In this document: positions 28,358 through 52,729 of the stretch, in pieces
Position numbering within the stretch: position 1 is the stretch's first letter
How the letters are laid out: every line of letters starts with the position of its first letter
Assembly: GCA_964356315.1 (NCBI GenBank)
Contig: CAYHHA010000001.1
Span: 51,299 to 115,298, forward strand
DNA length: 64,000 nt
Reading direction: 5' to 3'
Origin: an uncultured Gammaproteobacteria bacterium
GTDB taxonomy: Bacteria; Patescibacteriota; Microgenomatia; UBA10105; UBA927
The notes under the pieces: generated by a model
The model's database searches: none
The model's input: the letters and a program-made list of their open reading frames with translations, nothing else
What the model was told of the DNA's origin: nothing
Position numbers and translations under genes: made by a program

Positions 28358-28406
28358 ATGAACCATGAACCATGAACCATGAACCATGAACCATGAACCA
28401 TGAACC
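28358..28406. repeat. Perfect (ATGAACC)x7 heptanucleotide tandem array
   Basis: Read directly: atgaacc repeated seven times, 28358-28406, between two minus-strand T4SS-locus genes. Confidence 0.95.
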
Positions 28407-28411
28407 CCGCG

Positions 28412-29872
28412 CTATGTTCTGTTTCCAAACAACTCTTTTGTCAGCTGGTCTCTCGTGATTTGCTTTTGACTTTTTGTGATAATTTCTAGAGCTGGGACAA
28501 TTGATCCGTTTAGGGTCACCTGAACTCTGTCAAATGTGTAGCGTTGCCTCGGGTCTTCTATCTCAACAAAATACACACCGTTTGAAAGTGGGGTGGAAGC
28601 GGCAAATTGTCCAAGCCGATTTGTTTTGAGCGCTCGTACAGGTATACCTTCTTTGTCTTTCACTGTTACGAGAACGCCTGGTAGAAAATTATTATCGCTA
28701 TCTTTGGTGATTCCGGTGACGACGTTTGGAAATGTGGTAAGCCTTGGGAGCCCTGCTGTTACCGCTCCCTCCGGTGTGATAATTTTTACCGTTGGTTGTT
28801 TTTGTGACTGAAGCGGGATGGTTGGTTTTGGGACTTCAGGTTTCGCAATCGGTGGGAGTGGTGGGATTGGCGCCTGTGTGGTTATCTGCTGTATTGGCGC
28901 AGCCGCCTGTCTTGTGGATGTGGCTTGAATCTGCTGTTGTAATTTCGCCATCTCTCGTCCCATTTGGTCTTTTTGCTCTAACACTTCTGTGAGTTGTTTT
29001 TGTAGTTCCAGTATCCGAGATTCGGCAATAGATTTATTTTCTAGTTCGTGGGTGAGAGTAGAGAGTTTTTCTTCGAGTATTTCTTCCCTTTTTACTACCT
29101 CCTGAATCTTTTGTCTTTCTGGGTCGGGAGGTTTGACGACGGGTGGCATAGAGAGATCCAGCCTGGTTCCGACAATCGATGGGGTCTTGACGACCGGCGC
29201 CTGACTGGGTGTTGCGGGAGCAATGCGTGGTGCGATGGTTGGTTGCGGGCCTTTTATCGCAAAGAGCGAAAAAAACCAATCAAATAAACCAAGTTTCTTG
29301 GCCGGTGCGGGCTGCGAGAAACCGCGTTGGATTGGTTGTGTTTGGGGTAGAGTGGTTTGTTGGCGCGGGGCGTACATATTTGTTATGACGCTTGTCGTTG
29401 TTTTTTGCGGGGCGGATTGTGGCGCCACGCTTGTTCTGCTTTGTTGTGTTGGTTGGGCTTGTTGAGTCACCAAAGTTGGTATTTTTTGTGCGACCGGGAT
29501 AGTCTGATGTGTTGGGGCGAGGTATTGGCTTGCTCTCGCCTCGGTGAATACTGGGTTTTGAAGAGGCGGAGCTGCCTTTTTTTCTACTGATTTTTCCCAC
29601 ACATAGAGCGTGGGATTGTAAATGTTTTTTATAAAGGATAATGCCCACACGTCCATTGGTCTGTCCTCTATTGGAACAAAAGCAAATCCGACTCCACCCA
29701 AGGCAAATATGGTGGTAAGTGGCCACGTGAAGAAAAACGGCAACGGAAGCTTATACGATATATATGCGAGGATTAATCCACCCGCGAGGTATCCAAACTG
29801 CTTTATGGTCATGTCGCCTATAAGGCGGAACTGAAATGTTGTAACATTTTGCGGGACAGGATGTTGCTCCAT
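28412..29872 (-). CDS. T4SS-associated membrane protein: VirB3-like two-TM N-terminus, Pro/Gln-rich linker, coiled coil, C-terminal beta domain
   Basis: Two N-terminal TM helices (FGYLAGGLILAYISY, PLTTIFALGGVGFAFV). Long P/Q/T-rich low-complexity region, heptad-like ELQKQLTEVLEQKDQMGREMAKLQQQIQ, and a C-terminal carboxypeptidase-regulatory-like beta sandwich (GVLVTVKDKEGIPV...). Confidence 0.4.
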   Translation of the reverse strand: MEQHPVPQNVTTFQFRLIGDMTIKQFGYLAGGLILAYISYKLPLPFFFTWPLTTIFALGGVGFAFVPIEDRPMDVWALSFIKNIYNPTLYVWEKSVEKKAAPPLQNPVFTEARASQYLAPTHQTIPVAQKIPTLVTQQAQPTQQSRTSVAPQSAPQKTTTSVITNMYAPRQQTTLPQTQPIQRGFSQPAPAKKLGLFDWFFSLFAIKGPQPTIAPRIAPATPSQAPVVKTPSIVGTRLDLSMPPVVKPPDPERQKIQEVVKREEILEEKLSTLTHELENKSIAESRILELQKQLTEVLEQKDQMGREMAKLQQQIQATSTRQAAAPIQQITTQAPIPPLPPIAKPEVPKPTIPLQSQKQPTVKIITPEGAVTAGLPRLTTFPNVVTGITKDSDNNFLPGVLVTVKDKEGIPVRALKTNRLGQFAASTPLSNGVYFVEIEDPRQRYTFDRVQVTLNGSIVPALEIITKSQKQITRDQLTKELFGNRT

Positions 29873-29890
29873 ACTCTGATTATTCTACGG

Positions 29891-29959
29891 GCGAAACAAC
29901 TGTTTCGCAATAGCACAAAGCTCATCAGGACCGTGAAAACCTCCTATTTGAGTTTTCAC
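29891..29959. promoter_or_regulatory. Two palindromes in the divergent promoter region of the T4SS-like locus
   Basis: CGAAACAacTGTTTCG (29891-29906) and CGTGAAAAC-n11-GTTTTCACG (29931-29959), between minus-strand gene 28412..29872 and plus-strand gene 30041. Confidence 0.3.
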
Positions 29960-30040
29960 GAAATATTCATGTGGAAAAAACTATTTCTAATCGTTCGTGG
30001 TGTCCCGTGTTGGTCTTGGATTTTATGATAAGATGAACGC

Positions 30041-32227
30041 ATGGAGTCATCATTTGTGCTATTGGAAGTAAAAAACTCCCGGGAAAGTGAAGAAACGCCA
30101 GCTGCGATGGAGCAGGTGTATGCGGCGCTCGGCGCGACAGCGGGGCATGGTGGTTTTCTTGCTTCGTTATTCGGCCCGCGTCACGCTCCAAAATTTTTCA
30201 GCCTTGAACTAGTCTCTGTAAACTCACGACTGCATTTTTTCATCGGCATGCCATCTCTTTCTCAGTCATATGTAGAGAGTCAGATCACCGCGCAGTACCC
30301 GAAAGTGCTTTTATCTCTTTCTCCAGACTATGTTCCACATTTTTTTACACTGCCTCACACCAGTGCGCATCTGACGCTCTCAAACTCGTTTTATTATCCG
30401 CTTAAAACGTATAAAGATGTAAAAGAATTGGATGTATTGGCAAGCGTGTTAGGACAAATGGCAAAATTACCAAATGATGAAGCTGCCACAGTACAGATTT
30501 GGATATCTCCAGCAGGCCACAGCTGGCAACACACAGCGGCTTCTGTTGTTGCTCGAGGGATTCCCGACCTAAGCTCTCCGACCCCTGGTCGTATGAAGCC
30601 ACACCCGCATGCGCGACTTATTGAAACAAAAATTGCTCAGGTGGGGTTTAGCGCAGCAGTACGAATTGCGACGGTCGCTGCAAACGAACACCGAGCAAAC
30701 GAACTACTTCAATCTTTAGGTGGAACGTTTGGTGTATATACATTGGGTGGAGGAAATTCTCTACAACTCACAGAACCAGCATTTTGGAATAAAAAGCGTC
30801 TAGAAAAAGCAATGATTACCAGGAGTGGTGATTTGCTTCCCCGGAACCAAATATTAAACGCATCTGAGCTTGCATCTTTGTGGCACCCGCCTGGGCTCAC
30901 GCTCTCAATGATCAAAAACATCTCATGGGGATCGCAACTCACTGGGGAGGCTCCAGAAAATTTACCCATCGCAACAGACAGCGAAGAAGAGAAAAAAGAA
31001 ATAAATTTTTTCGCCAAGGCGGAACATAAAAATAAGCTGACGACTTTCGGTATTAAAAAGGATGATCGGCGACGACATATGTATATTATTGGGAAGACGG
31101 GGACTGGAAAATCTACCATGATTGCGAATATGGCAATCAATGACATGAAAAATGGAGAAGGCGTTGCTGTCGTTGATCCACATGGAGATCTTTGTGATAT
31201 CCTTTTGGACTATGTACCGTCTCACCGAATAAATGATGTTGTCTATTTGGACCCCGCTGATATTGAGTACCCGTTTCATTTAAATCCACTGGAGGTTCGA
31301 AATCCGGCATACAAAGAGCTCGTCTCCTCTGGCATCGTGTCTATCTTCTATAAACTCTATCATTTGAGTTGGGGGCCGAGACTCGAATATATTTTACGAA
31401 ACACAATTTTAACTCTGACGAACGTTCCTGGTAGCACGCTTTTGCAGGTTCCAGAACTTCTCACGAACGAAACGTATAGAGCAAAAGTTATTGAAAAAAT
31501 GACAGATCAAGTATTAAAAAATTTCTGGCTCAATGAGTTTGCAAAAATGAGCCCACAAATGCGTTCAGAAGCGGTCTCTCCAATTTTAAATAAAGTTGGG
31601 CAGTTCTTGTCATCGCAAACAATCCGAAATATTGTGGGCAGTAGCGTCTCAACTATTGATCTGGAAGACCTGATGAATCAAGGGAAAATTGTTCTCGTTA
31701 ATTTGTCACAAGGGAAACTCGGTGAAGATACGAGCGCACTTTTGGGAGCCATGATCATCACAAAAATGCAACTCGCCGCCATGAACCGTGTGTATCTAGC
31801 AGAGGGAGATCGGAAAGATTTCTACTTGTATGTCGATGAATTCCAAAATTTTGCCACAACCTCATTTATAAAAATTTTGTCTGAAGCCCGCAAATACAGG
31901 TTGGACCTTATTCTTGCAAATCAGTACATAGGGCAAATAGATGAAGATGTGCAGAGTGCTATTTTTGGCAACGCCGGATCTATTATCTCTTTTGGCGTTG
32001 GAGCCGCAGACGCACGACTCCTCACCCGTGAGTTTGGAGAAAAATATGAAGAGAGCGAATTGGTTGCTCTTGGAAATTATGAAACAATGTTAAAGCTCTC
32101 TATCGATAACCACATGAGTTTGCCATTTAGTGCGAAAACCCTCCCGCTTCCAAAGTCCCGAAACCAAAATAGGGAAAAGGTGATCCGCGCCTCGAGGGAA
32201 AGATATACGAAGAGAGTTGTGAAATAA
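30041..32227 (+). CDS. VirD4/TraG/TraD-like (FtsK/HerA-superfamily) P-loop ATPase, putative type IV coupling protein
   Basis: Walker A YIIGKTGTGKST followed by VAVVDPHGD (T4CP-like), Walker B YLYVDEFQNFA; 728 aa; no clear N-terminal TM, so the call is family-level only. Confidence 0.55.
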   Translation: MESSFVLLEVKNSRESEETPAAMEQVYAALGATAGHGGFLASLFGPRHAPKFFSLELVSVNSRLHFFIGMPSLSQSYVESQITAQYPKVLLSLSPDYVPHFFTLPHTSAHLTLSNSFYYPLKTYKDVKELDVLASVLGQMAKLPNDEAATVQIWISPAGHSWQHTAASVVARGIPDLSSPTPGRMKPHPHARLIETKIAQVGFSAAVRIATVAANEHRANELLQSLGGTFGVYTLGGGNSLQLTEPAFWNKKRLEKAMITRSGDLLPRNQILNASELASLWHPPGLTLSMIKNISWGSQLTGEAPENLPIATDSEEEKKEINFFAKAEHKNKLTTFGIKKDDRRRHMYIIGKTGTGKSTMIANMAINDMKNGEGVAVVDPHGDLCDILLDYVPSHRINDVVYLDPADIEYPFHLNPLEVRNPAYKELVSSGIVSIFYKLYHLSWGPRLEYILRNTILTLTNVPGSTLLQVPELLTNETYRAKVIEKMTDQVLKNFWLNEFAKMSPQMRSEAVSPILNKVGQFLSSQTIRNIVGSSVSTIDLEDLMNQGKIVLVNLSQGKLGEDTSALLGAMIITKMQLAAMNRVYLAEGDRKDFYLYVDEFQNFATTSFIKILSEARKYRLDLILANQYIGQIDEDVQSAIFGNAGSIISFGVGAADARLLTREFGEKYEESELVALGNYETMLKLSIDNHMSLPFSAKTLPLPKSRNQNREKVIRASRERYTKRVVK

Positions 32228-32282
32228 TGGTTCATGGTTCATGGTTCATGGTTCATGGTTCATGGTTCATGGTTCATGGTTC
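32227..32282. repeat. Perfect (ATGGTTC)x8 heptanucleotide array (the ATGAACC unit in inverted orientation), starting at the stop codon of the upstream ATPase gene
   Basis: Read directly; TAA stop of gene 30041..32227 overlaps the first unit. Confidence 0.95.
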
Positions 32283-32292
32283 AGGGGGAAGC

Positions 32293-32640
32293 ATGTTTAA
32301 TTTTGAAAAACTGCGTGTGTACGAGGATTCTTTGGAGTTTGTAGATCGTGTGTATGAGGAAATTTTCTTGTGGCCTAAAGATGAAAAATTTGGACTCGCT
32401 GATCAGTTTAAACGAGCTGCATATTCAATCACACTAAACATTGCAGAAGGAACAAGTAGGACAAAAAAGGATTTTAGCCGCTTCTTAGATTTATCCAGAG
32501 GGTCGTGTTATGAGTGTGTCTCAATACTTAAAATTGCACTGAACAGAAAGTATTTATCACCTGAAAAATATCTTGTGTTATATAATGATCTTGAAATTCT
32601 TTCAAAGAAAATAAGTGCTCTCAAAAATTCTCTACTATGA
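32293..32640 (+). CDS. Four-helix-bundle protein of the 23S-rRNA-IVS-protein / DGR Avd family
   Basis: MFNFEKLRVYEDSLEFVDRVYEEI...ADQFKRAAYSITLNIAEG...SRGSCYECVSIL matches the conserved pattern of PF05635-type four-helix bundle proteins. Start moved to ATG 32293, after the repeat-derived pseudo-N-terminus. Confidence 0.75.
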   Translation: MFNFEKLRVYEDSLEFVDRVYEEIFLWPKDEKFGLADQFKRAAYSITLNIAEGTSRTKKDFSRFLDLSRGSCYECVSILKIALNRKYLSPEKYLVLYNDLEILSKKISALKNSLL

Positions 32641-32720
32641 ACCATGAACTATGAACCATTAACAGTCTACTATCAACCATTAACAGTCTACTATCAACCA
32701 TGAACTACGAACCATGAACA
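32634..32720. repeat. Degenerate heptamer array (ACTATGA ACCATGA ACTATGA ACCATTA ACAGTCT ACTATCA x2 ... ACCATGA ACA), ATGAACC orientation, containing a 21-nt direct duplication
   Basis: Read directly. Includes the TGA stop of the 4HB gene and the ATG start of nadD; ccattaacagtctactatcaa is duplicated at 32657-32677 and 32678-32698. Confidence 0.85.
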
Positions 32721-33274
32721 TTTCTTTACTCGGTGGGGCATTTAACCCACCACATAACGGACATTTGATGATCGCCCAGCAAGTGTTAGATTTTACTAAC
32801 ACTGATGAGGTGTGGTTTTTACCAAATTTCAATCAGAGTCCTCCAAAGCCAGTGGCGTCTATGGAAGATCGATTGGCTATGACACAGCTCTTGGATTTGC
32901 CAAAGACCCGCGTGTCGACCATTGAAATAGATAGCAAGCTTGACGGAGAAACGATTCACATCCTGCCATATTTACCGAAAGAGCATTCATTTTCTTTTAT
33001 CATCGGGTCAGACCAGCTGCCAACACTTCATTATTGGCAAGGATGGGAGGAGCTCCTCCAACAAATGCCATTTTTTGTGTTCCCAAGGTACGGGTATCCG
33101 AACGAACCACTGTATCCAAATATGCACGTTATATCTGATGAACTTCTTGTTGGAAGCAATATTTCCTCTACAAAAATCCGCGAAAGGGTAAAGCGAGGTC
33201 TCCCGATAGACCAACTGGTACCACAAAACATAGCAGAATATATTAGGAAGGCTGGTTTGTACAAGACCTCTTAA
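32714..33274 (+). CDS. nadD: Nicotinate-nucleotide adenylyltransferase
   Basis: N-terminal LLGGAFNPPHNGHL (HxGH nucleotidyltransferase motif); 186 aa. Confidence 0.85.
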   Translation: MNISLLGGAFNPPHNGHLMIAQQVLDFTNTDEVWFLPNFNQSPPKPVASMEDRLAMTQLLDLPKTRVSTIEIDSKLDGETIHILPYLPKEHSFSFIIGSDQLPTLHYWQGWEELLQQMPFFVFPRYGYPNEPLYPNMHVISDELLVGSNISSTKIRERVKRGLPIDQLVPQNIAEYIRKAGLYKTS

Positions 33275-33297
33275 CAGGTCTTGACAGATGACCTGTT
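33273..33297. promoter_or_regulatory. Palindromic operator-like element overlapping a TTGACA -35 hexamer upstream of the antitoxin gene
   Basis: AACAGGTC-ttgacagat-GACCTGTT (8-bp arms), 20 nt upstream of the Phd-like start. Confidence 0.4.
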
Positions 33298-33316
33298 TAT
33301 ATATACCATATAGTGT

Positions 33317-33556
33317 ATGAATACTATCTCAATATCTCAGCTAAAAATAAATCCAGCTTCAGCGATAGCTACCGCCATTGATTATCCGCTGGCAGTAGAG
33401 AGTCGAAATAAAATCGAAGCATACCTTGTGGGTAAAACACTGTTTGAAAAAATAATCTCCATGATCGAAGATAAAACAGACACTGTCGTGGTTAAGAGGA
33501 CAGATTTTTCAAAAGGGAAAAATTTTGAGAATGTTGCAGGCGAACTAGGCATATGA
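33317..33556 (+). CDS. Phd/YefM-family type II antitoxin
   Basis: MNTISISQLKINPASAIATAIDYPLAV... resembles the YefM/Phd N-terminal fold; 4-nt ATGA overlap with the downstream toxin. Confidence 0.6.
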   Translation: MNTISISQLKINPASAIATAIDYPLAVESRNKIEAYLVGKTLFEKIISMIEDKTDTVVVKRTDFSKGKNFENVAGELGI

Positions 33557-33816
33557 ATATCCGAATATCGCCCCGGGCAGAAAATGAATTTAAGAAACTT
33601 CCCAAATTTGACCAGATTGCCATTGCTCAAAAAATTCGATCACTTGCTGGCCCCTCTGTCTTGGTGGAAGAGAAGCTTTCCGGGTTCCAATTCATTTTTA
33701 GGGTTCGGGTGGGAAGTTATAGAATCGTATACAAAAAAACAAACGATGAGCGATATATCGTCCTTATCGGACACAGAAAAGATATATACAAAAAACTTGA
33801 AGATTTGTTGAGATAA
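33553..33816 (+). CDS. RelE/ParE-family type II toxin (mRNA interferase)
   Basis: ...FRVRVGSYRIVYKKTNDERYIVLIGHRKDIYK: canonical RelE/ParE C-terminal core. Confidence 0.75.
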   Translation: MNIRISPRAENEFKKLPKFDQIAIAQKIRSLAGPSVLVEEKLSGFQFIFRVRVGSYRIVYKKTNDERYIVLIGHRKDIYKKLEDLLR

Positions 33817-38050: not shown

Positions 38051-39586
38051 TTATTCGTGATCAACTCCTGGCGGTGGTTTCCCAGCTCCAAGCATTTGAG
38101 GAGCCGCTTTCTCTCCCTTGATGTGCTTCATATAGTATATAAGGGAAGATATTTGAGATCCATAAGAGAGTGCACTTGCCAATGCTCCACCACCTCCACC
38201 TCCAGCTCCTGCGAACGCAGGCTTTGCCTTCAGCGCTTCTTTTACCGATCCAGCTACTGTTGGGATGGCAAAAAGAACACCAAGGGATACAAGTGATGCT
38301 ATTTGTGCCATATCTCCTGAGACTGGTGCATAGGGCGGTGTCCATAGTTTTCCTGCGGAGGCGTTGTTGGAAAAATGGGTAAACACATTTGCAAGCATAA
38401 ACATCCCGGCTCCGATGGGGAACACAGCTAGATTAGAGATCAGATTATTAAACCACGAAGAAAATGCAGTGCTCCCTGGTATGGCCTCCATCATAAGTTG
38501 AAGTGGCGCAAGAAGGAGCGAAAGGATAATTTGAATATAAGACATAAGGAAAAATGCCACAAGGCGAACAAACAGGAAAATAATCGCAACAGTAAGGATA
38601 ACATGAATTATAGGAATGCTTAGGCTTGCTATTCCAACTGGAGCTGCGATTAGTGCGGCCCCTGGCACTGTTGCTAATGCAAGAGCGAAAATAATTCCCC
38701 CAACAGAGAGGTATTTTGCCGTGGCCTGCGCTACAGCATTCGTCCCAAAAAGTATTTTATCTACATCCCAAGAGAGGTTGAAGAAATTTTGCATCAATCC
38801 GCCCTGTCCATAAAGCTGTTCAGGTGTTTTAAATCCTTGAGAGAGTGCAACCCCCTGAGGAGCGTCAAGTAGCGTTGTCGACTTGAATAGCGCAATCAAA
38901 ATATAGATAATCACATACATAAAATCGATCAAAATACCTACAATGGCATAAGAAAATGTGATGAGGATAAGCGCTAGGACAACTTTAGGGATAGCATTTT
39001 GTGCGGTGACGACCGTATGAGGGTCAATTTTTTTCCGGAACATGATCATAAAACCAAGTACAATCATGACAATTGCCATCAGTAAGTATGCGACGTTTCG
39101 AAATGCTTTCCAGACAGGCAAGAGGGGAGCCATGCCAGAAAAACCAATGCCCTGGCCTTGTGCAAACGCCTGTTGGGGTATAAATCCGAGCGTGCGACCT
39201 GTGTCTGCAATCCAGAGTCCTGTATCTGCGGGTCTTTGTGTAAATGTTAAAGCCACAACGTCATTTAATTTCCCAAATGCGCTGTTTTGTATATATGTTT
39301 GCATATCTGCTGGATTGTCTGTGCAGTCAAAGCCAACTCCTAAGCATGACAGTGAATATAATCCATAAATATTGCTTGAGTGTACAGATGATTCCGAATT
39401 CATGGGTGTACCTTGTAGAGCTTTGCCAAATTGGGAAGGAGGCGGAAATTTCCAGGACTCTGCAGCGTGTACAGTGACAGTCAAAGAAAAACAGAGTGCT
39501 ATGCCAGCTAGGTAGAGTGATATGGTGTGTAAATATCTCTTCATGCTTCCTCTATTATTGAGTAATTGTGTTATGGCGTCAATCAT
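38051..39586 (-). CDS. VirB6/TrbL-like polytopic inner-membrane protein (putative T4SS channel component)
   Basis: Signal peptide (LYLAGIALCFSLTVTVHA), about 120-aa periplasmic segment, then six or more TM helices and a Gly-rich tail; directly upstream of the pilin gene array. Confidence 0.4.
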   Translation of the reverse strand: MIDAITQLLNNRGSMKRYLHTISLYLAGIALCFSLTVTVHAAESWKFPPPSQFGKALQGTPMNSESSVHSSNIYGLYSLSCLGVGFDCTDNPADMQTYIQNSAFGKLNDVVALTFTQRPADTGLWIADTGRTLGFIPQQAFAQGQGIGFSGMAPLLPVWKAFRNVAYLLMAIVMIVLGFMIMFRKKIDPHTVVTAQNAIPKVVLALILITFSYAIVGILIDFMYVIIYILIALFKSTTLLDAPQGVALSQGFKTPEQLYGQGGLMQNFFNLSWDVDKILFGTNAVAQATAKYLSVGGIIFALALATVPGAALIAAPVGIASLSIPIIHVILTVAIIFLFVRLVAFFLMSYIQIILSLLLAPLQLMMEAIPGSTAFSSWFNNLISNLAVFPIGAGMFMLANVFTHFSNNASAGKLWTPPYAPVSGDMAQIASLVSLGVLFAIPTVAGSVKEALKAKPAFAGAGGGGGGALASALSYGSQISSLIYYMKHIKGEKAAPQMLGAGKPPPGVDHE

Positions 39587-39969: not shown

Positions 39970-40092
39970 AGGTATATTGTAGCACGTACACTCTGGGATT
40001 ATGAATAATGAGCTGAAACTATTTAGGAATACTTACGTACACATCATGATATTTCCATGATTCATTCTTCATGATTCCCGATTCAGATTGTT

Positions 40093-40422: not shown

Positions 40423-40501
40423 ACGTTCCTCCTATTTTATATATCTATATTATATCCTATTTCTTATTGTTGCGCAAAAAGATAGAGACTGTCAATGCCA
40501 T

Positions 40502-40849: not shown

Positions 40850-40850
40850 A

Positions 40851-41240: not shown

Positions 41241-41241
41241 A

Positions 41242-41607
41242 TTAGTTTGGACCGTATATTGACGGGCTTAGGATGGCGCTTGGGCTACCAAAGAATACTT
41301 GACCCATCAGAGCGGCGATTGCAAAAGACCCCACAATCAACACAAGTCCGAGAAGTGATTGGTAGATCCTGTCCCATGCCGCGGATACTGACTTAGAATC
41401 ACCACCAGCGTTCATATACTGGAATCCTGCAATGATAAAGTTGAAAAACGCAAAAATCCCCGCAACCACAAACACCAGTCTTAAAATATTACTGAGAAAT
41501 AGGATAAGCCCGCCCCCTGCGCCTGCTGCTCCAATAATATTTTTATATTGTGCCGGTAGCGGGTTTGTGACCGTTCCGATAATATCGTCTGCGTAAACTT
41601 TAAACAT
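41242..41607 (-). CDS. TrbC/VirB2-like T4SS pilin paralog 5 (start set at internal Met to avoid overlap)
   Basis: MNAGGDSKSVSAAWDRIYQSLLGLVLIVGSF; the ORF-track N-terminal 30 aa overlap the next gene. Confidence 0.5.
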   Translation of the reverse strand: MFKVYADDIIGTVTNPLPAQYKNIIGAAGAGGGLILFLSNILRLVFVVAGIFAFFNFIIAGFQYMNAGGDSKSVSAAWDRIYQSLLGLVLIVGSFAIAALMGQVFFGSPSAILSPSIYGPN

Positions 41608-41618
41608 ATAATTAGCAT

Positions 41619-41954
41619 CTACCTCGGTAAAATACAAAGTGTATTTACACAATCTCCCTTTAAACCTGTTAGGGTCTCTATAATCTGAATGATCCAAAAC
41701 GATCCGAGTACAACGATAAGACCTATGACTGCGCCGGTAATTGCCTTTTTCCCCGACTCCATTTTTTTCGTATCTCCGGATCCTGCAGCTTGTATCATAC
41801 CAAATCCAGCGAAAACTAACAAAAGAAACGCGATAACACCTGCGAGCATAAAAGCATTTGGCACGATCACCGACACCAAATCACCTAGGTTGGTAAACTT
41901 TGTTATAGAGGGAAATTCAGTTCCAATATTCACAGCTGCAAATACGCGTTCCAT
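41619..41954 (-). CDS. TrbC/VirB2-like T4SS pilin paralog 6
   Basis: IQAAGSGDTKKMESGKKAITGAVIGLIVVLGSF. Confidence 0.55.
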   Translation of the reverse strand: MERVFAAVNIGTEFPSITKFTNLGDLVSVIVPNAFMLAGVIAFLLLVFAGFGMIQAAGSGDTKKMESGKKAITGAVIGLIVVLGSFWIIQIIETLTGLKGDCVNTLCILPR

Positions 41955-43575: not shown

Positions 43576-43682
43576 AAATAATCCAATAAACAATAAGTAA
43601 ATAAGGAATAAGGAATAAGGAATAAAAAAATAAGCAGTAAACAATAAGCAAATAAGGAATAACAAATAAACAATAAAGAAGT
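43576..43682. repeat. AATAA-rich degenerate heptamer array including (AATAAGG)x3, immediately upstream of the HMG-CoA reductase start
   Basis: Read directly: ...aaataaggaataaggaataaggaataaaaaaataagcag...aaataaggaataacaaataaacaataaagaagtATG. Confidence 0.8.
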
Positions 43683-44828: not shown

Positions 44829-45874
44829 AATCGGTCGGCATTACCTCATATGGGACCTATATCCCAACTTACCGGGTGAAGCTGGATGATATCGCGCGCG
44901 CGTGGGACAAAAATGGCGTTGAAATTCAAGGGTCGCTGGGTATAGCGGAAAAATCCGTTCCCGGCGTTGACGAAGATGCCGTAACCATTGCTCTTGAAGC
45001 CGGGGTAAACAGTCTTTACGGCCACAATGGAAAACCGACTGATATCGGTGTATTGTTTGTTGGAAGTGAGAGCCACCCTTATGCCGTCAACCCTACTTCA
45101 ACGATTGTTGGAGAATTATTAAGCATAGGAACATCGTACCTCGCGGCTGACTTACAATTTGCGTGCAAAGCGGCGACAGCAGGAATGCAGGCTATTGCGG
45201 GACTTGTCGCTTCTGGGCATGTTTCCTATGGCATGGTGATAGGCGCGGACACAGCGCAAAGCAAACCACACGACGCCCTCGAATACACCTCTGCGGCAGC
45301 AGGGGTTTCTTGCATTTTGGGATCAAAAGGGTGCATTGCAAATCTATTGGCATATACGTCGTATTCATCTGATACCCCAGATTTTTGGAGGCGCGATGGA
45401 TTAAAATACCCTTCTCATTCAGGGCGATTTACGGGAGAGCCTGCGTATTTCGCCCATGTCCTTGGCGCATCAAAACAACTTCTCGAGCAAGCGAAATTAA
45501 CACCAAAAGAATTTACGTACTGCGTATTTCATATGCCAAATGGAAAATTCCCACGGGATGTGGCAAGACGGTTAGGGTTTTCAAAAGAACAACTTGCCCC
45601 TTCTCTCACCGTGGATGACATAGGAAACCCATATTCAGCTTCTGCCCTGTTGGGTCTTGCGGCGGTTCTTGATATAGCGCAACCAGGGGATAAAATTTTT
45701 ATGGCTTCTTATGGGTCAGGAGCGGGGAGCGATGCCTTTGTTTGGGAGGTAACACCAGATATGGTAGCGTATAGAGAGGCGACCTCTGCAGTAAAAAAAA
45801 CAGTGAAACAACAAATAGAGCAAAAAGTGTATATCGATTATGTAGGATATTTAAAAAAGACACATAAGATTTAA
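44819..45874 (+). CDS. HMG-CoA synthase, short archaeal-type
   Basis: 351 aa thiolase-fold with SYGSGAGS near the C-terminus and an active-site Cys context (A-C-K-A-A-T); overlaps the hmgA end by 10 nt. Confidence 0.8.
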   Translation: MRMKSVGITSYGTYIPTYRVKLDDIARAWDKNGVEIQGSLGIAEKSVPGVDEDAVTIALEAGVNSLYGHNGKPTDIGVLFVGSESHPYAVNPTSTIVGELLSIGTSYLAADLQFACKAATAGMQAIAGLVASGHVSYGMVIGADTAQSKPHDALEYTSAAAGVSCILGSKGCIANLLAYTSYSSDTPDFWRRDGLKYPSHSGRFTGEPAYFAHVLGASKQLLEQAKLTPKEFTYCVFHMPNGKFPRDVARRLGFSKEQLAPSLTVDDIGNPYSASALLGLAAVLDIAQPGDKIFMASYGSGAGSDAFVWEVTPDMVAYREATSAVKKTVKQQIEQKVYIDYVGYLKKTHKI

Positions 45875-45877
45875 ATG

Positions 45878-45963
45878 TTATTGGTTCAGAGTTCATGGTT
45901 CATGGCAAAAAAAACATGTTGACCACCGGCTATGAACCATTAACCACCAACCATGAACCATTA
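45878..45963. repeat. Inverted heptamer arrays: (TGGTTCA-like)x3, A8-containing spacer, then (ACCATGA/ACCATTA/ACCACCA)x6, ending at the thiolase start
   Basis: Read directly: tggttcagagttcatggttcatgg caaaaaaaacatgttg accaccggctatgaaccattaaccaccaaccatgaaccattaaat ATG. Confidence 0.8.
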
Positions 45964-45966
45964 AAT

Positions 45967-47136
45967 ATGAATATCTATATAACAGGCGTATCGACAACAA
46001 AATTTGGAGAATTATGGGGGGTGTCCCCAAGGGTTTTGGCACGCGAGAGTGTGACCGGTGCACTTTCGGACGCGGGGCTTGAGCCACGCGATGTGGACGC
46101 ATTGTTTGTAGGGAATATGCTCTCTGGCATGCTTGGGGGACAAGAGCATTTGGGGGCATTTTTTGCAGAGGAATTAGGCCTTTCTATCCCCGCATTTAAA
46201 ATAGAAGGCGCATGCGCTTCTGGCGGGCTTGCCGCACACAACGCCGTTAACAGTGTCCTATCAGGACAATACAAAACAGTCGTTGTCTTAGGTGTAGAAA
46301 AAATGACCGACCATAAGCCAGAAGATGTCGCAACAGCACTAATGGGCGCAGGAAGCGAAGCCGAACGATTGTCCGGCATAACATTCCCAGGATTGTATGC
46401 AATGCTCGCTGGAGCGCACATGAGAGCGTTTGGGACTACTAGGGCGCAAATGGCGTCGGTTGCCGTGAAAAATCATTTTCACGCATTGGCAAATCCTAAT
46501 GCGCAGTTTCATAGCGCAATTACTGTGGAGCAGGTTCTTCGAAGCTCTTGTATTGCAGACCCATTAACACTTTTGGATTGTTCGCCAATATCTGATGGAG
46601 CGTCGGCGGTTGTTATATCCAGTAGTAAGGGGAATGGAAAAAGTAGTAAGGATTCTATTGAAATTCTTGCAAGTGTTGCGGCCACTGATACGCTGTCTCT
46701 GGCTCAGAGAGAAAGTCTTGTTGAGCTTAAGGCTACTCGAGTGGCAAGCAAAAAAGCATATGAAATTGCCGGAATTACTCCACCTGAAATCGATATCGCT
46801 GAAGTGCATGATTGTTTTACTATTGCAGAAATTCTCGCGATGGAAGATTTGGGGTTATACGAAAAAGGGATGGCCTCGGTATCGATTGAGAACGGCGAAA
46901 CAACACTTGGATCATCAAAACGTGTCGTAGTAAATACATCAGGAGGTCTAAAAGGATGCGGGCATCCGGTTGGTGCCACAGGGGTAAAGCAACTCGTGGA
47001 GATCGTCGAACAGCTACGTGGCTCTTGTGGAAAGAGACAAGTGGATGGTGCTCGTGTTGGGCTCACTCATAATGTGGGAGGAAGCGGGGCGACGGCAGTG
47101 GTGCACATACTTATGAATAATTCAATAAACAAATAA
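45967..47136 (+). CDS. Archaeal-type acetyl-CoA C-acetyltransferase (thiolase)
   Basis: 390 aa; MNIYITGVSTTKFGEL N-terminus and GACASGG active-site Cys region typical of archaeal/SCP2-type thiolases. The ORF-track N-terminal 24 aa are repeat-derived. Confidence 0.8.
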   Translation: MNIYITGVSTTKFGELWGVSPRVLARESVTGALSDAGLEPRDVDALFVGNMLSGMLGGQEHLGAFFAEELGLSIPAFKIEGACASGGLAAHNAVNSVLSGQYKTVVVLGVEKMTDHKPEDVATALMGAGSEAERLSGITFPGLYAMLAGAHMRAFGTTRAQMASVAVKNHFHALANPNAQFHSAITVEQVLRSSCIADPLTLLDCSPISDGASAVVISSSKGNGKSSKDSIEILASVAATDTLSLAQRESLVELKATRVASKKAYEIAGITPPEIDIAEVHDCFTIAEILAMEDLGLYEKGMASVSIENGETTLGSSKRVVVNTSGGLKGCGHPVGATGVKQLVEIVEQLRGSCGKRQVDGARVGLTHNVGGSGATAVVHILMNNSINK

Positions 47137-47196
47137 TCCAATAATCCAATGATAAATATATTAGAATATTAGTTTATTGGAATATTGGAGTATTAT
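47132..47196. repeat. AATAATCC direct repeats and inverted ATTGGAAT/ATTGGAGT partner flanking the RBS of the downstream gene
   Basis: aataatccaataatccaat at 47132-47150 versus attggaatattgga at 47176-47189; GGAG RBS at 47187-47190. Confidence 0.5.
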
Positions 47197-47197
47197 T

Positions 47198-47497
47198 ATG
47201 ATCAGTCCAGTAAAAGTGTGGAGAAACCAAAAATATGTTGCTAGAATGATCGGGAAAACCGGGGTTATTGTCGCGGTGACTATTATTCGGGTTCCTCCCG
47301 CAAATTTTGGGCATCAAGCGCCGTATGCTGTCGCTATCGTTTCTTTGGATGGTGGAGAATCCGTTTGCTCTCAGGTGGTTGATTGTTCTCTTTCGGATGT
47401 ATGTGTTGGAAAGAGGGTGGTGACGGTTGTGCGCAAAACCATCCAATCTGAAGTAGATGATGTTATCCCATACGGCATTAAAGTAAAGCTCGCGTAG
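47198..47497 (+). CDS. DUF35-like OB-fold protein (thiolase/HMG-CoA-synthase scaffold partner), lacking an N-terminal Zn-ribbon
   Basis: About 99 aa, beta-rich (VIVAVTIIRVPP...YAVAIVSLDGGESVCSQVVD...GKRVVTVVRK). Position immediately after the thiolase matches the archaeal thiolase/HMGCS/DUF35 gene triad. No CxxC pairs are present. Confidence 0.45.
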   Translation: MISPVKVWRNQKYVARMIGKTGVIVAVTIIRVPPANFGHQAPYAVAIVSLDGGESVCSQVVDCSLSDVCVGKRVVTVVRKTIQSEVDDVIPYGIKVKLA

Positions 47498-47502
47498 AAG
47501 TG

Positions 47503-47545
47503 GAGCTTCGTAGCTTAGAACTTAGAACTTAGAACTAAGCAGCCT
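47503..47545. repeat. (TAGAACT/GAACTTA)x3-4 heptamer array upstream of the mevalonate kinase gene
   Basis: agcttcgtagcttagaacttagaacttagaactaagcagcctaagc. Confidence 0.75.
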
Positions 47546-47558
47546 AAGCATACTAATT

Positions 47559-49977: not shown

Positions 49978-50957
49978 AAATCACCGCGCAGGCCCCAGCA
50001 AATATTGCATTTTTAAAATACTGGGGGAAAACTGATGATGCACTCCGGATCCCTGCAAACTCGTCGTTCTCGATGAATCTTTCTGAGGCAATTACCACAA
50101 CTACCGTAGAGTTTTCAGACGCACTGTCTCGGGATGTTGTTGAGTTTGAGGGGGATTCCCTTTCAGAACATGAAATAAGCCGTATTGTTCATTTCCTTGA
50201 CCTAGTTCGCGACAGAGCGGGGGTCCGCCTGTTTGCGCGAGTACGAACGAAAAATTCTTTCCCGAAAGGAGCAGGGGTTGCATCTTCTGCATCAGGATTT
50301 GCTGCGCTTGCTGTGGCATCAGTCAACGCAATCGGACTTTCTCTCTCGGAAAAGGAATTATCTATTCTTGCTCGGCTTGGATCTGGTTCCGCATGCAGAA
50401 GCATCCCTGATGGGTTTGTTAGGTGGGAAAAAGGTCAGGGGACGAGCGACACCTCCTTTGCTCACTCTGTTGCGCCAGCTGATTTTTGGGATATACGCGA
50501 TATCCTTTGCATTGTGGATCCTGCGATGAAAAAGGTGTCCACAACAGATGGGCATACATTTGCTTCAACAAGCCCATTATGGAACAAGAGAATGGAGCAG
50601 TTGCCGTCTGTTGACGTAGCCATGATGGATGCGTTTTGGAAAAAAGACTTCTCTATATTTGGGCAAATAGTTGAGGGTGAATGCGATAACATGCATGCGG
50701 TAATGCAGTCACAGACCCCTCCACTCTATTACTGGTCTGATGCGACTGTTAATATCATGGAAAAAGTAAAAGAGTGGCGCGCACAAGGGGTATCCGTTTA
50801 TTATACGATCGATGCGGGAGCCAACGTGCATGTGCTTTGCGAACAAAAAAACGAAGCTGTTGTTGCACAGCTAGCTGGGAATTGTGCGGGAGTTCTGCGC
50901 ATTGTAATAAACCGACCGGCAAACGGCGCGAGAGTAATTCACTCTCACTTATTTTAA
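49974..50957 (+). CDS. mvaD: Diphosphomevalonate decarboxylase
   Basis: N-terminal APANIAFLKYWGK motif; GHMP fold; 4-nt overlap with the upstream kinase gene. Confidence 0.85.
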   Translation: MKITAQAPANIAFLKYWGKTDDALRIPANSSFSMNLSEAITTTTVEFSDALSRDVVEFEGDSLSEHEISRIVHFLDLVRDRAGVRLFARVRTKNSFPKGAGVASSASGFAALAVASVNAIGLSLSEKELSILARLGSGSACRSIPDGFVRWEKGQGTSDTSFAHSVAPADFWDIRDILCIVDPAMKKVSTTDGHTFASTSPLWNKRMEQLPSVDVAMMDAFWKKDFSIFGQIVEGECDNMHAVMQSQTPPLYYWSDATVNIMEKVKEWRAQGVSVYYTIDAGANVHVLCEQKNEAVVAQLAGNCAGVLRIVINRPANGARVIHSHLF

Positions 50958-50987
50958 CCATGAACAATGAACCATGAACCATGAACA
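50958..50987. repeat. (AACCATG/AACAATG)x4 heptamer array whose last unit supplies the uppS ATG
   Basis: ttaACCATGAACAATGAACCATGAACCATGAACACTAAG; uppS begins ATGAACACT. Confidence 0.8.
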
Positions 50988-51691
50988 CTAAGTCACACAC
51001 AATTCCCAAGCACATTGCCATCATTATGGATGGAAACAGGCGGTGGGCCAAAGAGCACCATCTTCCGATTCTTGAGGGTCACAGAAGAGTTGTCGATACG
51101 ATTTTGGAGCCCCTTATCGAGCATGCGTCTGACTGTGGCATATCCTATCTGACGCTCTGGGCATGGTCAACAGAAAACTGGAAACGGGACAGCACCGAGG
51201 TTCAAGGGATTATGAATCTCCTCCGGTACGGGTTTAAAACATTTGGAAATCGAATGCACAAAAAAGGCATCCGAATACGGATCATTGGTGACACGAGTCA
51301 ATTTGATGAGGATATTCAAACGCTTCTTTCATCATATGTTGAAAAAACAAAAGAGAATACGAAGATCACTGTTGTGTTTGCTCTTAATTACGGCGGGAGA
51401 GATGAAATTATTCGAGCAATACATTCTATGAGCCAAGATCCAAGATCCAAAATCCAAGATCCAAAAATATCTGAAGAATATTTTTCACAATTTTTAGACA
51501 CTGCTGGCATTCCAGATCCGGATATCATTGTGCGAACCGGAGGAGAGAAGCGACTAAGTGGGTTTTTGCTCTGGCAGAGTCAGTATAGTGAATTGTTTTT
51601 TGAAGATTGGCATATGCCGGATTTTATCGCGGAAAAATTGGATGAGATTCTGTCCGAGTTTGAGCATCGTCAGCGGAGGTTTGGGGCGTAA
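50981..51691 (+). CDS. uppS: Undecaprenyl-diphosphate synthase (cis-prenyltransferase)
   Basis: IIMDGNRRWAKE and ALNYGGR...RTGGEKRLSGFLLWQ motifs. Confidence 0.9.
   Translation: MNTKSHTIPKHIAIIMDGNRRWAKEHHLPILEGHRRVVDTILEPLIEHASDCGISYLTLWAWSTENWKRDSTEVQGIMNLLRYGFKTFGNRMHKKGIRIRIIGDTSQFDEDIQTLLSSYVEKTKENTKITVVFALNYGGRDEIIRAIHSMSQDPRSKIQDPKISEEYFSQFLDTAGIPDPDIIVRTGGEKRLSGFLLWQSQYSELFFEDWHMPDFIAEKLDEILSEFEHRQRRFGA
51434..51468. repeat. In-frame (CAAGATC/CAAAATC)x5 heptamer array inside the uppS coding sequence
   Basis: agccaagatccaagatccaaaatccaagatccaaaaat encodes the SQDPRSKIQDPKIS insert in a variable loop of UppS. Confidence 0.75.
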
Positions 51692-51694
51692 GGG

Positions 51695-52039
51695 TTATCC
51701 AAAAATTGCTTTGATTGCGTCAAATCCAAAGACGAACCCAAAGATTTGCACCATCCAATACGCAGAGAAGATAATGAAGAATCCCAAAATAGCATAGGTA
51801 ATTTGTTGTTTCCCTTTTTCAAGACTTTTCGCATCTCCAGCGCTGGTTAAAAATGTGAATCCTCCCAAAAGAAGCATTAAAAGAAGTCCAATGCCACCAA
51901 ACAGAAATACCAATTTCATAGCGCTAGATACAAGACCGCCGACACCCATGCCTGCAGCGCCACCTTCGAGAGGGCCATTTACAGAAGCGGAAGTGCCTAC
52001 CCACGGAAGTGTGAGGTTTTGCGCAAGTTGTTTTATCAT
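51695..52039 (-). CDS. TrbC/VirB2-like T4SS pilin paralog 7 (distal copy)
   Basis: LTSAGDAKSLEKGKQQITYAILGFFIIFSAYW: the same motif as the six-gene array at 39.6-42 kb. Confidence 0.6.
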   Translation of the reverse strand: MIKQLAQNLTLPWVGTSASVNGPLEGGAAGMGVGGLVSSAMKLVFLFGGIGLLLMLLLGGFTFLTSAGDAKSLEKGKQQITYAILGFFIIFSAYWMVQIFGFVFGFDAIKAIFG

Positions 52040-52042
52040 AAT

Positions 52043-52507
52043 TTATTTAAATCCTGGTATTCCAATAATATTAACTCCAATAAACTGTAGGATAAATATA
52101 GAGAAAATAATCAGAAGAAGTCCTGTGATTGCAGATGTGACAAGTTCTCGACCAGCATTTAGTTGCTCTGGATTTCCGGCACTGGTCATAATCTGAAGCC
52201 CGCCAAATAAAATTAACAAGAACGCAATGCCACCCGCTATTCCCATAGCGAACCTGATTACTTTTTCCAACAAACTATTCGGATTAGATTGAATATCATC
52301 AATACAGCCAATCGCTGTCCAAACTCCTGGAGAAGTGTCATCTCCCATACAACTCTCGCAACCTGATTTTTGCTTAGGGTCTGTGATCGTGCTACAGGCC
52401 CTCGTGTTTATCTCAAAGGCCGTTTTCTCTGCTTTTACGACAAAAACATGTCCTACTAAAGCTGTGAATACTATGAAAAAAGCCGTAACAACGCCAAATA
52501 TACGCAT
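52043..52507 (-). CDS. TrbC/VirB2-like pilin paralog 8 with Cys-rich N-terminal extension
   Basis: Signal peptide, a segment with five Cys, then IMTSAGNPEQLNAGRELVTSAITGLLLIIFSIF. Confidence 0.5.
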   Translation of the reverse strand: MRIFGVVTAFFIVFTALVGHVFVVKAEKTAFEINTRACSTITDPKQKSGCESCMGDDTSPGVWTAIGCIDDIQSNPNSLLEKVIRFAMGIAGGIAFLLILFGGLQIMTSAGNPEQLNAGRELVTSAITGLLLIIFSIFILQFIGVNIIGIPGFK

Positions 52508-52570
52508 GTCTTAAGTGTACCAAATTACCCGAGGGAAAGAAAGAATGATAGAATGGAAGAGGCCTTATAT

Positions 52571-52729
52571 AATAAGGAATAATAAATAATAAATAAGGAA
52601 TAATAAAGAATAAAATAAGGAATACATACATCATGAAGTATCAAACACAAAAAATTGCACATAGAGTGTTCCTCATTTGTATATTTGTTGCTTGTTATTC
52701 CTTATTCCTTATTCCTTATTCCTTATTCC
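52571..52729. repeat. Inverted heptamer arrays (GGAATAA-type upstream, (TTATTCC)x5 downstream) bracketing the start codon of the SpoIID-like gene, within the divergent promoter shared with pilin paralog 8
   Basis: 52571-52625 aataaggaataataaataataaataaggaataataaagaataaaataaggaatac; 52695-52729 ttattccttattccttattccttattccttattcc. The latter encodes SLFLIPYSLFLIS of the signal peptide. Confidence 0.8.

Follow-up and report, generated by a model that had tools for sequence, protein, structure and literature searches.

Heptanucleotide tandem arrays at gene junctions of a candidate phyla radiation bacterium include an element organized like a 23S rRNA intervening sequence

The DNA analyzed here is a stretch of 64,000 nucleotides (contig CAYHHA010000001.1, positions 51,299 to 115,298; referred to below as the window), in which tandem arrays of short units, mostly of 7 nt, lie at gene junctions. 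Several are found within or beside a mevalonate operon of the order HMGR-HMGS-thiolase-OB(DUF35)-MK-PMK/Nudix-MDD-uppS (encoding HMG-CoA reductase, HMG-CoA synthase, thiolase, an OB-fold protein, mevalonate kinase, phosphomevalonate kinase/Nudix, mevalonate-diphosphate decarboxylase, and UppS). Two arrays enclose a gene for an S23p/intervening-sequence protein (IVP), the protein associated with 23S rRNA intervening sequences (IVSs). Homologues of one protein encoded in the window carry the names Patescibacteria, Ca. Woesebacteria, and Ca. Gottesmanbacteria, and the host is therefore a bacterium of the candidate phyla radiation (CPR). The arrays, called on the window with Tandem Repeats Finder (TRF) and labeled A1-A13, are collected in Table 1 together with other features of the window.

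Table 1. Tandem arrays and other features of the 64-kb window
Feature	Coordinates	Strand	Unit or product	Placement
A1	28358..28406	-	Perfect (ATGAACC)7, 100% matches (TRF); mRNA reads (GGUUCAU)7	Between TAG stop of PrgI-like gene (28412-28414) and AAGGA ribosome-binding site and ATG (28341) of 221-aa open reading frame
A2	32227..32283	+	Perfect (ATGGTTC)8 (TRF 8.1 copies, 100%)	5' arm of IVS-like element
IVP gene	32293..32640	+	S23p/IVP (23S rRNA intervening-sequence protein; four-helix bundle; Avd-like), 115 aa	In hairpin loop
A3	32634..32719	+	~12 degenerate ATGAACC units, including a 21-nt higher-order block x2.8	3' arm of IVS-like element
A4	43584..43676	+	~13 degenerate CAATAAG/AATAAGG units	Yip1 stop (43575) to HMG-CoA reductase start (43683)
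A5/A6	45882..45961	+	Hairpin (TGGTTCA)3.4 - loop - (ATGAACC)4.3; arms 45882-45905 and 45932-45961 (TRF)	HMG-CoA synthase stop (45874) to thiolase start (45967)
A7/A8	47116..47195	+	8-mer hairpin: (AATAATCC)4.4 (47116-47150) and inverted (TATTGGAA-type)4.8 (47158-47195)	A7 (5' arm) over last thiolase codons and TAA stop (47134-47136); A8 (3' arm) over GGAG upstream of OB-fold (DUF35-type) gene start (47198)
A9	47514..47556	+	(CTTAGAA)3.3 (47514-47536), then (ACTAAGCAG)2.6	OB-fold gene stop (47497) to mevalonate kinase start (47559)
A10	50956..50986	+	(AACCATG)4.4; last unit ATGAACA	Starts within TAA stop (50955-50957) of mevalonate-diphosphate decarboxylase gene; last unit is uppS start (50981)
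A11	51433..51464	+	(CCAAGAT)4.6	Inside uppS; encodes loop SQDPRSKIQDPK
A12	52567..52624	+	~8 AATAAGG-type units	Upstream of SpoIID-like start (52633); 5' arm of long-range stem
A13	52695..52734	+	Perfect (TTATTCC)5.7, reverse complement of AATAAGG	Codons 21-34 of SpoIID-like open reading frame; 3' arm pairing with A12
dnaA	19784-21151			
dnaN	21367-22470			
ParE-family toxin gene	33553-33816	+		Directly downstream of nadD
Small paralogous ORFs	39583-41954, 51695-52507		T4SS_pilin (PF18895) where scanned	Two clusters flanking mevalonate operon
smpB	57200-57661			
tmRNA	57805-58235	+	Rfam 97.9 bits; 431 nt versus 374-position model	Adjoining smpB

Eleven of the 13 arrays are wholly or mainly intergenic, and nine occupy the interval from a stop codon to the following start codon; A11 and A13 are inside open reading frames (ORFs), and A7 covers the end of the thiolase gene. 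A preliminary description of the window, from which A11 was absent, had reported a family of such arrays at gene junctions, and the family proved non-random, with every listed array recovered by TRF at the position given. Its account of the units as 7 nt long and of the arrays as spacer elements applies to most of them; the units of 47116 and 47158 are 8-mers, 52695 lies in an ORF, and 47116 covers the last codons of thiolase. The abutment of arrays on stop codons is correct for 32227, 32638, 47134, and 50955, as is the use of ATGAACA as the start of nadD and uppS. Two further statements did not survive. Each junction had been said to have its own unit, and instead a few families recur: ATGAACC/GGTTCAT at five loci (28358, 32227, 32637, 45882/45932, and 50956) and AATAAGG/CCTTATT at three (43584, 52571, and 52695). 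Arrays had also been placed at nearly every junction of the mevalonate operon, and only four of its seven internal junctions have one; the genes at HMGR|HMGS, MK|PMK, and PMK|MDD overlap and have none.

The period of 7 is specific. Perfect arrays of at least three copies number five at period 7 and zero at periods 5, 6, and 8-12, and shuffled sequences yielded none. Degenerate regions number nine at period 7 and at most one at each other period among 4-13; the six found at period 14 are the period-7 arrays detected again. Two-unit matches to ATGAACC occur 30 times in the window against 2.4 expected, and those to AATAAGG occur 12 times against 0.9 expected; none of 100 shuffles reached either count.

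The element at 32227-32719, between the traG-like gene and nadD, consists of A2, the IVP gene, and A3. A2 begins with the final A of the traG-like TAA stop codon, and the array is followed by AGGGGGAAGC and then by the ATG of the IVP gene. A3 includes the TGA stop of the IVP gene (32638-32640), and its last unit, ATGAACA, is the start of nadD (32714). The IVP ORF matches PF05635 at 5e-30, TIGR02436 at 2e-27, and PDB entry 2gsc (Xanthomonas XCC0516) at 2e-16. Its flanks are complementary with a z score of 14, and in RNA structure prediction the arms of the 32227/32637 pair (32215-32730) pair over ∼50 bp (z -6.35; ΔG about -150 kcal/mol for the whole 516-nt element). In architecture, then, the element is a 23S rRNA IVS sited between two protein-coding genes. 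No rRNA was detected in the window with Rfam, and the element is not in a 23S or 16S rRNA helix. An IVP gene occupies the same place in a syntenic relative (L200). A diversity-generating retroelement finds no support: no reverse transcriptase (RVT) domain was found among the window ORFs scanned, the match of the IVP ORF to the Avd model NF033474 of such retroelements is weak (20.8 bits; cut-off 80), and the flanks are heptamer arrays, not template and variable repeats.

Four inverted array pairs of the window, that of the IVP element included, fold as single strands with stems of 12-50 bp and z scores of -2.1 to -6.4, in agreement with the earlier suggestion that such pairs can pair with each other. 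The 45882/45932 pair (45872-45970) folds with a ΔG of -26 kcal/mol (z -3.15); its loop contains no ORF, and its polarity, GGTTCAT to ATGAACC, is that of the IVP element. The 8-mer pair 47116/47158 (47100-47200) folds with -19 kcal/mol (z -2.1), and the 52571/52695 pair (52555-52745) with -46.9 kcal/mol (z -5.6), linking the leader of the SpoIID-like gene to codons in which A13 encodes the hydrophobic core of a predicted signal peptide (YSLFLIPYSLFLIS). The remaining intergenic arrays A4, A9, and A10 are unpaired and essentially unstructured (ΔG -0.3 kcal/mol for the A-rich A4; z -0.6 for A9), and A1, which has no inverted partner, shows weak self-pairing only (ΔG -17.8; z -2.1). These unpaired arrays can be interpreted as solo arms. 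Pairing in the stems is nearly all Watson-Crick, and neither strand, sense or antisense, folds better than the other; G·U-based strand asymmetry, considered as a discriminator of RNA- from DNA-level selection, was dropped because there was no difference. A role as transcription terminators was also set aside, since by eye the stems are without a following U-tract; no terminator scan was run.

The association of an IVP gene with short-unit flanks recurs in other genomes. All six IVP genes that happened to lie in loci selected on other grounds had short-unit array flanks. One of the six, from Mucilaginibacter, has (GGTTCAT)5 upstream and ATGAACC units downstream, the unit and arrangement of the window, with proteins only 43% identical. 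CPR homologues of the IVP, identified by protein similarity, are encoded between housekeeping genes of the same strand (purA|maf, mreB|next gene, and rpmE|prfA); every one has GGTTCA[CT] units directly before the ATG, with the consensus ...GGTTCATAGTAGAA...ATG, and most have xTGAAC units at or over the stop codon. Among 12 IVP genes from plasmids of Nostoc, Aulosira, Anabaena, Calothrix, Picosynechococcus, Pseudanabaena, Geminocystis, Riemerella, and Azospirillum, 10 are flanked by inverted arrays, each with its own unit (CAGGAGT, GGGAAAA, AAGGTTC, GGTGACA, GGGTGTA, GAGGACG, and others), one by direct arrays, and one by none. The direct-array case, a Pseudanabaena galeata plasmid (L236), has at least 14 visible AAAAGCT units upstream (∼290-400) and ∼10 AAAAGCC units downstream (∼760-870).

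Flank complementarity was scored by Smith-Waterman alignment for 19 IVP genes from CPR bacteria, cyanobacteria, Riemerella, and Azospirillum. In 14 of the 19 the flanks are complementary at z of at least 5, and they are mostly heptamer-periodic with a unit that differs from case to case. Because the arms stay complementary while the unit varies, the conserved feature is the stem or the process that makes it. In three genomes the flank unit is also the unit of that genome's dispersed arrays: ATGAACC in the window, GTAACAAGTTAGAAAGACA in L149, and GGAAAGC in L154. Three of the 12 plasmid-borne genes, which encode IVP or four-helix-bundle proteins and have array flanks, are located inside CRISPR-cas operons, in the order cas6-IVP-cas4 twice and cas10-IVP-cmr3 once (L234, Anabaena sp. 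90 pANA02; L236, Pseudanabaena pPg_01; L235, a Picosynechococcus plasmid).

The ATGAACC unit itself is widespread. An exact (ATGAACC)4 scan with one genome per species returned at least 118 loci; the figures that follow are for the matches listed. These come from cyanobacteria, Bacteroidota, an Akkermansia metagenome-assembled genome, Proteobacteria, Acidobacteria, Planctomycetes, Saccharibacteria, and Omnitrophota, and are common in Nostocaceae, Coleofasciculus, and Symploca. Period 7 dominates at these loci (301 regions versus at most 12 at other periods). All 30 adjacent inverted pairs, from 21 loci, have (GGTTCAT)n followed by (ATGAACC)n (p = 2e-9), an order that holds whichever strand is read and that both ATGAACC pairs of the window obey. 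Local slippage combined with random inversion would not give such a fixed polarity. The centre ATGGCTAT/ATAGCCAT is common to many of the pairs, across phyla. In many cyanobacterial hairpins of the family the arms differ at one position per unit (GGTTAAT/ATGAACC or GGTTCAT/ATTAACC), giving one mismatch every 7 bp (L003, L023, L038, L040, L044, L083, L084, and L111), and there too the same centre recurs.

Relatives were represented by 80 loci with the same operon and thiolases 46-77% identical to that of the window. They contain 81 period-7 regions versus at most 15 at any other period, with units that vary by genome; TTAGAAC-type arrays, comparable to A9, are present in L146 and L189. Between orthologous genes of the operon the median spacer is 1-11 nt. 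Each junction nevertheless exceeds 40 nt in 12-20 loci, except MDD|uppS, where 3 of 19 do so; many of these longer spacers are hairpins of inverted short-unit arrays with other units, and others are unrelated palindromes resembling miniature inverted-repeat transposable elements (MITEs). L122 has a GTTCA/TGAAC hairpin at HMGS|thiolase, the site of A5/A6. The MDD|uppS junction of L154 is interrupted by an IVP gene with GGAAAGC/CTTTCCG arrays on its flanks. The MITE-like palindromes (GTCATTGCGAG...CTCGCAATGAC and TGTCATTCCC...GGGAATGACA) were seen at operon junctions of L130, L134, L170, L180, and L156. Since they and the heptamer hairpins share junctions, operon junctions look like general landing sites for palindromes.

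With gene bounds defined by homology (a six-frame ORF mask, which placed 63 of 90 arrays in ORFs, was unreliable owing to spurious and over-extended ORFs), 45 of 60 arrays in the operons of relatives are coding and 15 lie in spacers, which make up 6.3% of the length, a ∼4-fold spacer enrichment. On the sense strand the coding arrays are rich in A, and the same surface loops of thiolase and UppS have been expanded independently in different lineages: a thiolase loop at nt offset ∼650 by lineage-specific heptamers in L121, L129, L149, L180, L148, and L122, and the UppS loop encoded by A11 by other heptamer units in L121 and L148. The expansions seen amount to 5-7 residues (e.g. KSKVKSQKSK). At the other end of thiolase, the 8-mer array of the window encodes the last codons (MNNSINK, stop; 47116-47136), and because thiolases of relatives align only to residue 382-386 of 389, this C-terminal tail seems to be repeat-derived.

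Observations of this kind could be read as neutral debris of a polymerase with a slippage bias for 7-nt units, the hairpins and the IVP association being incidental. Heptamers are the most abundant class of long simple sequence repeat in many bacteria (Mrazek 2007, cited in PMC4679880 and PMC4692102). The independent origin of lineage-specific units in the same protein loops, the coding majority in relatives, and the usual absence of arrays from orthologous junctions all fit this explanation as well. In contrast, one unit is found at several unlinked sites of a genome, in the window as in L149, L154, L121, and L148; inverted pairs have one polarity; the units of the two arms covary in the 14 complementary IVP cassettes; and the centre motif recurs across phyla. 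Because shared units, fixed polarity, covarying arms, and a recurrent centre are unexpected from local slippage alone, neutral slippage is contradicted as a full account and is considered unlikely.

Copy number was compared at two levels of divergence. L200, whose IVP is 77% identical to that of the window, is syntenic with window positions 25.7-43.5 kb and has fewer units: ∼2.5 versus 8 at A2, where it reads TAA-TAGTTCATAGTTCATAG, ∼4 versus 12 at A3, and none versus seven at the A1 junction (PrgI|221-aa ORF), where a 1-nt spacer stands in place of (GGTTCAT)7. Near-identical sequences comprised the ENA contig NODE_573 (100% and 99.91% in two stretches), four Logan assemblies (99.93-100%), and one strain at 99.78%; no indel was found in any array that they span. 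Six other assemblies cover A3, five cover A4 (one being the 99.78% strain), one covers A5-A9, and two cover A10-A12. The perfect arrays are barely tested by this comparison, A1 being spanned by no other assembly and A2 and A13 by NODE_573 only, apart from a same-length read (L199) over A2. The ENA contig L222 is identical at A7/A8, and L240 and L241 are identical at A10. L199, in which the IVP is 100% identical, was rejected as an A2 polymorphism: it is of the same length and in register, with scattered mismatches at 1.1x coverage, and is attributed to read noise.

The Logan contigs break 29-30 nt inside perfect arrays: L224-L227 start at 32254 in A2, and L241 ends at 52723 in A13. Such breaks fit a k-mer of ∼31, and the arrays therefore fragment short-read assemblies and hide copy-number information. 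Both these breaks and the noisy A2 of L199 are of the kind expected if the arrays were themselves artefacts of assembly or sequencing, which the preliminary description had allowed for. Identical arrays are nevertheless present in independent assemblies, including an ENA contig that differs from the window at six other positions and has the same copy number; shorter homologous arrays lie at the same junctions of L200; and the phenomenon recurs in finished genomes and plasmids. An artefact is accordingly regarded as extremely improbable.

The same comparison bears on slipped-strand phase variation, proposed in the preliminary description, in which gain and loss of 7-nt units would switch adjacent or host genes on and off. 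The perfect arrays have 5.7-8 copies of a unit not divisible by 3, and one of these, (TTATTCC)5.7, falls among the signal-peptide codons of a gene for a secreted SpoIID-like protein, a position reminiscent of the CTCTT repeats in Neisseria opa genes. The window and L200 have different copy numbers, and the number of heptamers in the Coxiella IVS varies from strain to strain (PMC4990558). On the other side, no array indel was found across the 99.8-100% identical assemblies, although consensus assemblies hide minority variants, and most arrays cannot shift a frame: a change of one unit would alter the reading frame at 52695 and 51433, inside ORFs, and not at the stop-to-ribosome-binding-site or stop-to-ATG arrays, where length has no effect on frame. 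Arrays also occur inside uppS in the window and inside thiolase, uppS, and kinase genes in relatives, where a frameshift would presumably be lethal, and many are degenerate and hence poor substrates for slippage. Contingency loci thus appear very unlikely. The arrays change on the timescale of species divergence, and no evidence for population-level switching was found in these assemblies.

A further explanation holds that sense arrays upstream of start codons are translation-initiation elements that bind ribosomes, S1, or another protein. One form of it is a hand-over: since (ATGAACC)n offers an ATG overlapped by a TGA in each frame, ribosomes would terminate and reinitiate along it until the last ATG is reached, which would preserve translational coupling at junctions that formerly overlapped. 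Both nadD and uppS start on a last unit ATGAACA with no visible Shine-Dalgarno (SD) sequence, and thiolase is likewise without one; the corresponding junctions overlap or are a few nt long in relatives and were probably coupled ancestrally. AATAAGG arrays amount to tandem SD-like AAGGA motifs in an unstructured leader, as in A4, which additionally has TAA in all three frames. Similar proposals have been made for TAACTGA repeats (PMC4679880) and Nostoc heptamers (bioRxiv 10.1101/2022.06.06.494920). The positional test was flat, however: among the 118 listed loci, drawn from many phyla, sense (ATGAACC)n has the start of an ORF of 100 codons or more at the array or no further than 40 nt beyond it in 24% of cases versus 26% for random positions, and the hand-over was for this reason retained as a minor rival only. 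Moreover, both orientations are found in mRNA ((GGUUCAU)7 at 28358 and (AUGGUUC)8 at 32227), the same junctions lack arrays in most relatives, and neither the arrays inside ORFs nor the fixed polarity of the hairpins is explained. An initiation function is judged improbable.

The reading favored here, with moderate confidence as a whole and with less for its individual steps, is that the arrays are heptamer repeats of a class already described in cyanobacteria and other bacteria, short tandemly repeated repetitive sequences or long simple sequence repeats (STRR/LSSR), whose intergenic members mostly form IVS-like palindromic hairpins. The palindromes are imperfect and have the form (GGTTCAT)n-loop-(ATGAACC)n, with AATAAGG/CCTTATT arrays making one such pair too, and the shorter hairpins resemble the IVP element minus its ORF. 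Arrays may grow and shrink by replication slippage, partly in blocks of three units (21 nt), and arrays and cassettes may spread between sites by recombination among arrays or another mobility mechanism. By analogy with IVSs, long stems in RNA could be cut by RNase III, which would split the operon transcript at junctions. Translation may be coupled or repressed by a stem that has an arm over a stop codon or ribosome-binding site, as at thiolase|OB and in the SpoIID-like leader; the thiolase|OB geometry, with arms over the stop codon and GGAG, could enforce coupling. Selection would then filter arrays by position, such that stop-triplet arrays persist only in spacers, A-rich sense units in hydrophilic loops, and the sole T-rich sense array in a signal peptide. 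The net effect on the host is probably small, and the element is therefore most readily regarded as selfish or neutral, its consequences for mRNA being side effects.

Several observations weigh against this reading. Four arrays of the window (28358, 43584, 47514, and 50956) are partnerless with little or no structure, and neither the AATAAGG family nor the 8-mer hairpin has a link to an IVP in the window. For only about one-third of the large ATGAACC arrays listed from other phyla is there an inverted partner no more than 700 nt away, and tblastn detected an IVP match at only two of the 118 listed loci selected for arrays. Arrays therefore far outnumber cassettes, and a general occurrence of IVP genes beside ATGAACC arrays was rejected: the association runs from IVP to arrays and not from arrays to IVP. 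Among the 19 IVP genes scored, two have no detectable arrays and one has direct instead of inverted arrays. Since the stems show no strand asymmetry, RNA-level selection is indistinguishable from selection for a DNA-level palindrome. Cleavage by RNase III is extrapolated from rRNA IVSs, and the window has no rnc gene. Finally, no mobility machinery was found, with neither a transposase (including the RAYT type) nor a reverse transcriptase among the window ORFs scanned.

A more ambitious proposal, put forward as a speculation with rather poor odds, is that the IVP and the heptamer hairpin form one functional unit across phyla. An Avd-like pentamer would bind the stem around its own gene and protect or propagate it, RNase III or a reverse transcriptase possibly acting in trans, and the thousands of ORF-less arrays, STRRs and those of the window among them, would be non-autonomous derivatives of the cassette. 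If true, this would assign a function to two orphans, the STRR repeats and the 23S rRNA IVS protein.

Contrary to the preliminary description, which recognized no described repeat family here, the kind of repeat is known: heptanucleotide LSSRs, STRRs, TAACTGA repeats, and Coxiella IVS heptamers are all in the literature. Heptanucleotide repeats are over-represented and are termed LSSRs (Mrazek 2007, cited in PMC4679880 and PMC4692102), and 7-bp STRR hairpins lie between hupS and hupL in cyanobacteria (PMC2670836). Common to STRR/LSSR arrays and those of the window are tandem 7-nt units, an excess of period 7, dispersal of the unit in the genome, and intergenic enrichment; STRR/LSSR arrays, too, are often hairpins inside operons (PMC2670836) and vary in length and sequence between related species (PMC4692102). 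In the strict sense, however, STRRs belong to heterocystous cyanobacteria, and the window is of CPR origin by its type IV secretion system (T4SS)-like cluster (PrgI, pilins), its archaeal-type HMGS/thiolase/DUF35 genes, and the names of homologues. The units of the window also differ from the classical STRR1-3. A further difference is that most arrays in relatives of the window genome are inside coding loops.

The second known system is the 23S rRNA IVS. In Coxiella, tandem GACAGAT heptamers precede the S23p ORF in strain-variable number, the IVS has terminal inverted repeats, and RNase III cuts in the stem, at the first repeat; excision by RNase III is known for Coxiella, Leptospira, and Salmonella (PMC4990558). 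The rRNA genes of CPR bacteria carry IVP ORFs and IVSs of the RNase III type, and their sporadic distribution and assumed horizontal spread (PMC11270868) have a counterpart here. Like the IVSs of Leptospira, Coxiella, and CPR rRNA, the element at 32227-32719 has its S23p/IVP ORF in the loop of an inverted-repeat stem with tandem heptamer flanks. It differs in lying between operon genes (traG-like|nadD). Non-rRNA sites are not confined to the window, as the junctions purA|maf, mreB|next gene, rpmE|prfA, cas6|cas4, and cas10|cmr3 demonstrate.

TAACTGA repeats, described upstream of start codons (MacGregor 2015, PMC4679880) in marine Beggiatoaceae, cyanobacteria, and Bacteroidetes, resemble the present arrays in having stops in three frames, in preceding SD-less starts, in a patchy distribution across the same phyla, and in that some repeats lie within ORFs in a stop-free orientation. 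They have another unit, and in Beggiatoaceae nearly all are direct and forward (1 inverted among 170), in contrast to the prominent inverted pairs found here; their bias to pre-start positions holds locally for nadD and uppS, whereas the ATGAACC arrays listed across phyla show no excess at ORF starts. Repetitive extragenic palindromes and mosaic elements (REP/BIME) and MITEs are similarly imperfect palindromes after stops in operons, present at some orthologous junctions only, and the MITE-like palindromes of relatives take the same junctions; the arms in the window, by contrast, are tandem 7-8-nt units of variable copy number and not a fixed sequence. Borg elements have pervasive, fast-evolving tandem repeats between and inside genes, with low-complexity or disordered loops added to proteins (PMC9879509). 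The host of the present arrays is a bacterial chromosome; their unit is 7 nt, coding arrays being read as 7-aa periods over 21 nt. No link between Borg repeats and IVP genes is known.

In the literature searched, no description was found of heptamer or simple sequence repeat arrays in CPR genomes, of the ATGAACC unit, its palindrome, or its fixed polarity, or of a general rule that IVP genes, in rRNA or between genes, lie in heptamer-arm hairpins whose unit is that of dispersed arrays. Within that literature, the CPR occurrence, the ATGAACC polarity, and the IVP-heptamer rule thus appear new, while the kind of repeat is not. STRR/LSSR arrays and the S23p protein have each been without a known function for decades and are now seen together as one architecture. 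The IVP-in-hairpin arrangement extends beyond rRNA to sites between ordinary genes of CPR bacteria, cyanobacteria, and Bacteroidota, cas operons included, with an arm unit that matches the dispersed arrays of the genome and, for ATGAACC, with a polarity fixed across phyla. There are practical consequences as well: the arrays break short-read assemblies of CPR genomes and add low-complexity loops to conserved enzymes, and both annotation and protein modeling are affected.

The remainder of the window provides the chromosomal setting. With dnaA and dnaN adjacent and the cumulative GC skew at its minimum at ∼19 kb (range 18-20 kb), the chromosomal replication origin falls within the window, and every heptamer array is to the right of it, at 28-53 kb. 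Other gene content includes a glycosyltransferase cluster, nadD, smpB, tmRNA, and a T4SS-like cluster with VirB4-like, PrgI-like, and TraG-like genes and many pilin paralogues. The two pilin clusters that flank the mevalonate operon are arranged alike in the near-identical contigs and in L200. Searches for proteins identical to the thiolase or to the product of the 221-aa ORF gave no match. Just upstream of the ParE-family toxin gene is a 79-aa ORF that is also called in near-identical contigs, and the two probably form a toxin-antitoxin module. The tmRNA was not reported by ARAGORN; by eye, its tag reading frame looks unusually long and ends in ...GRLAA.

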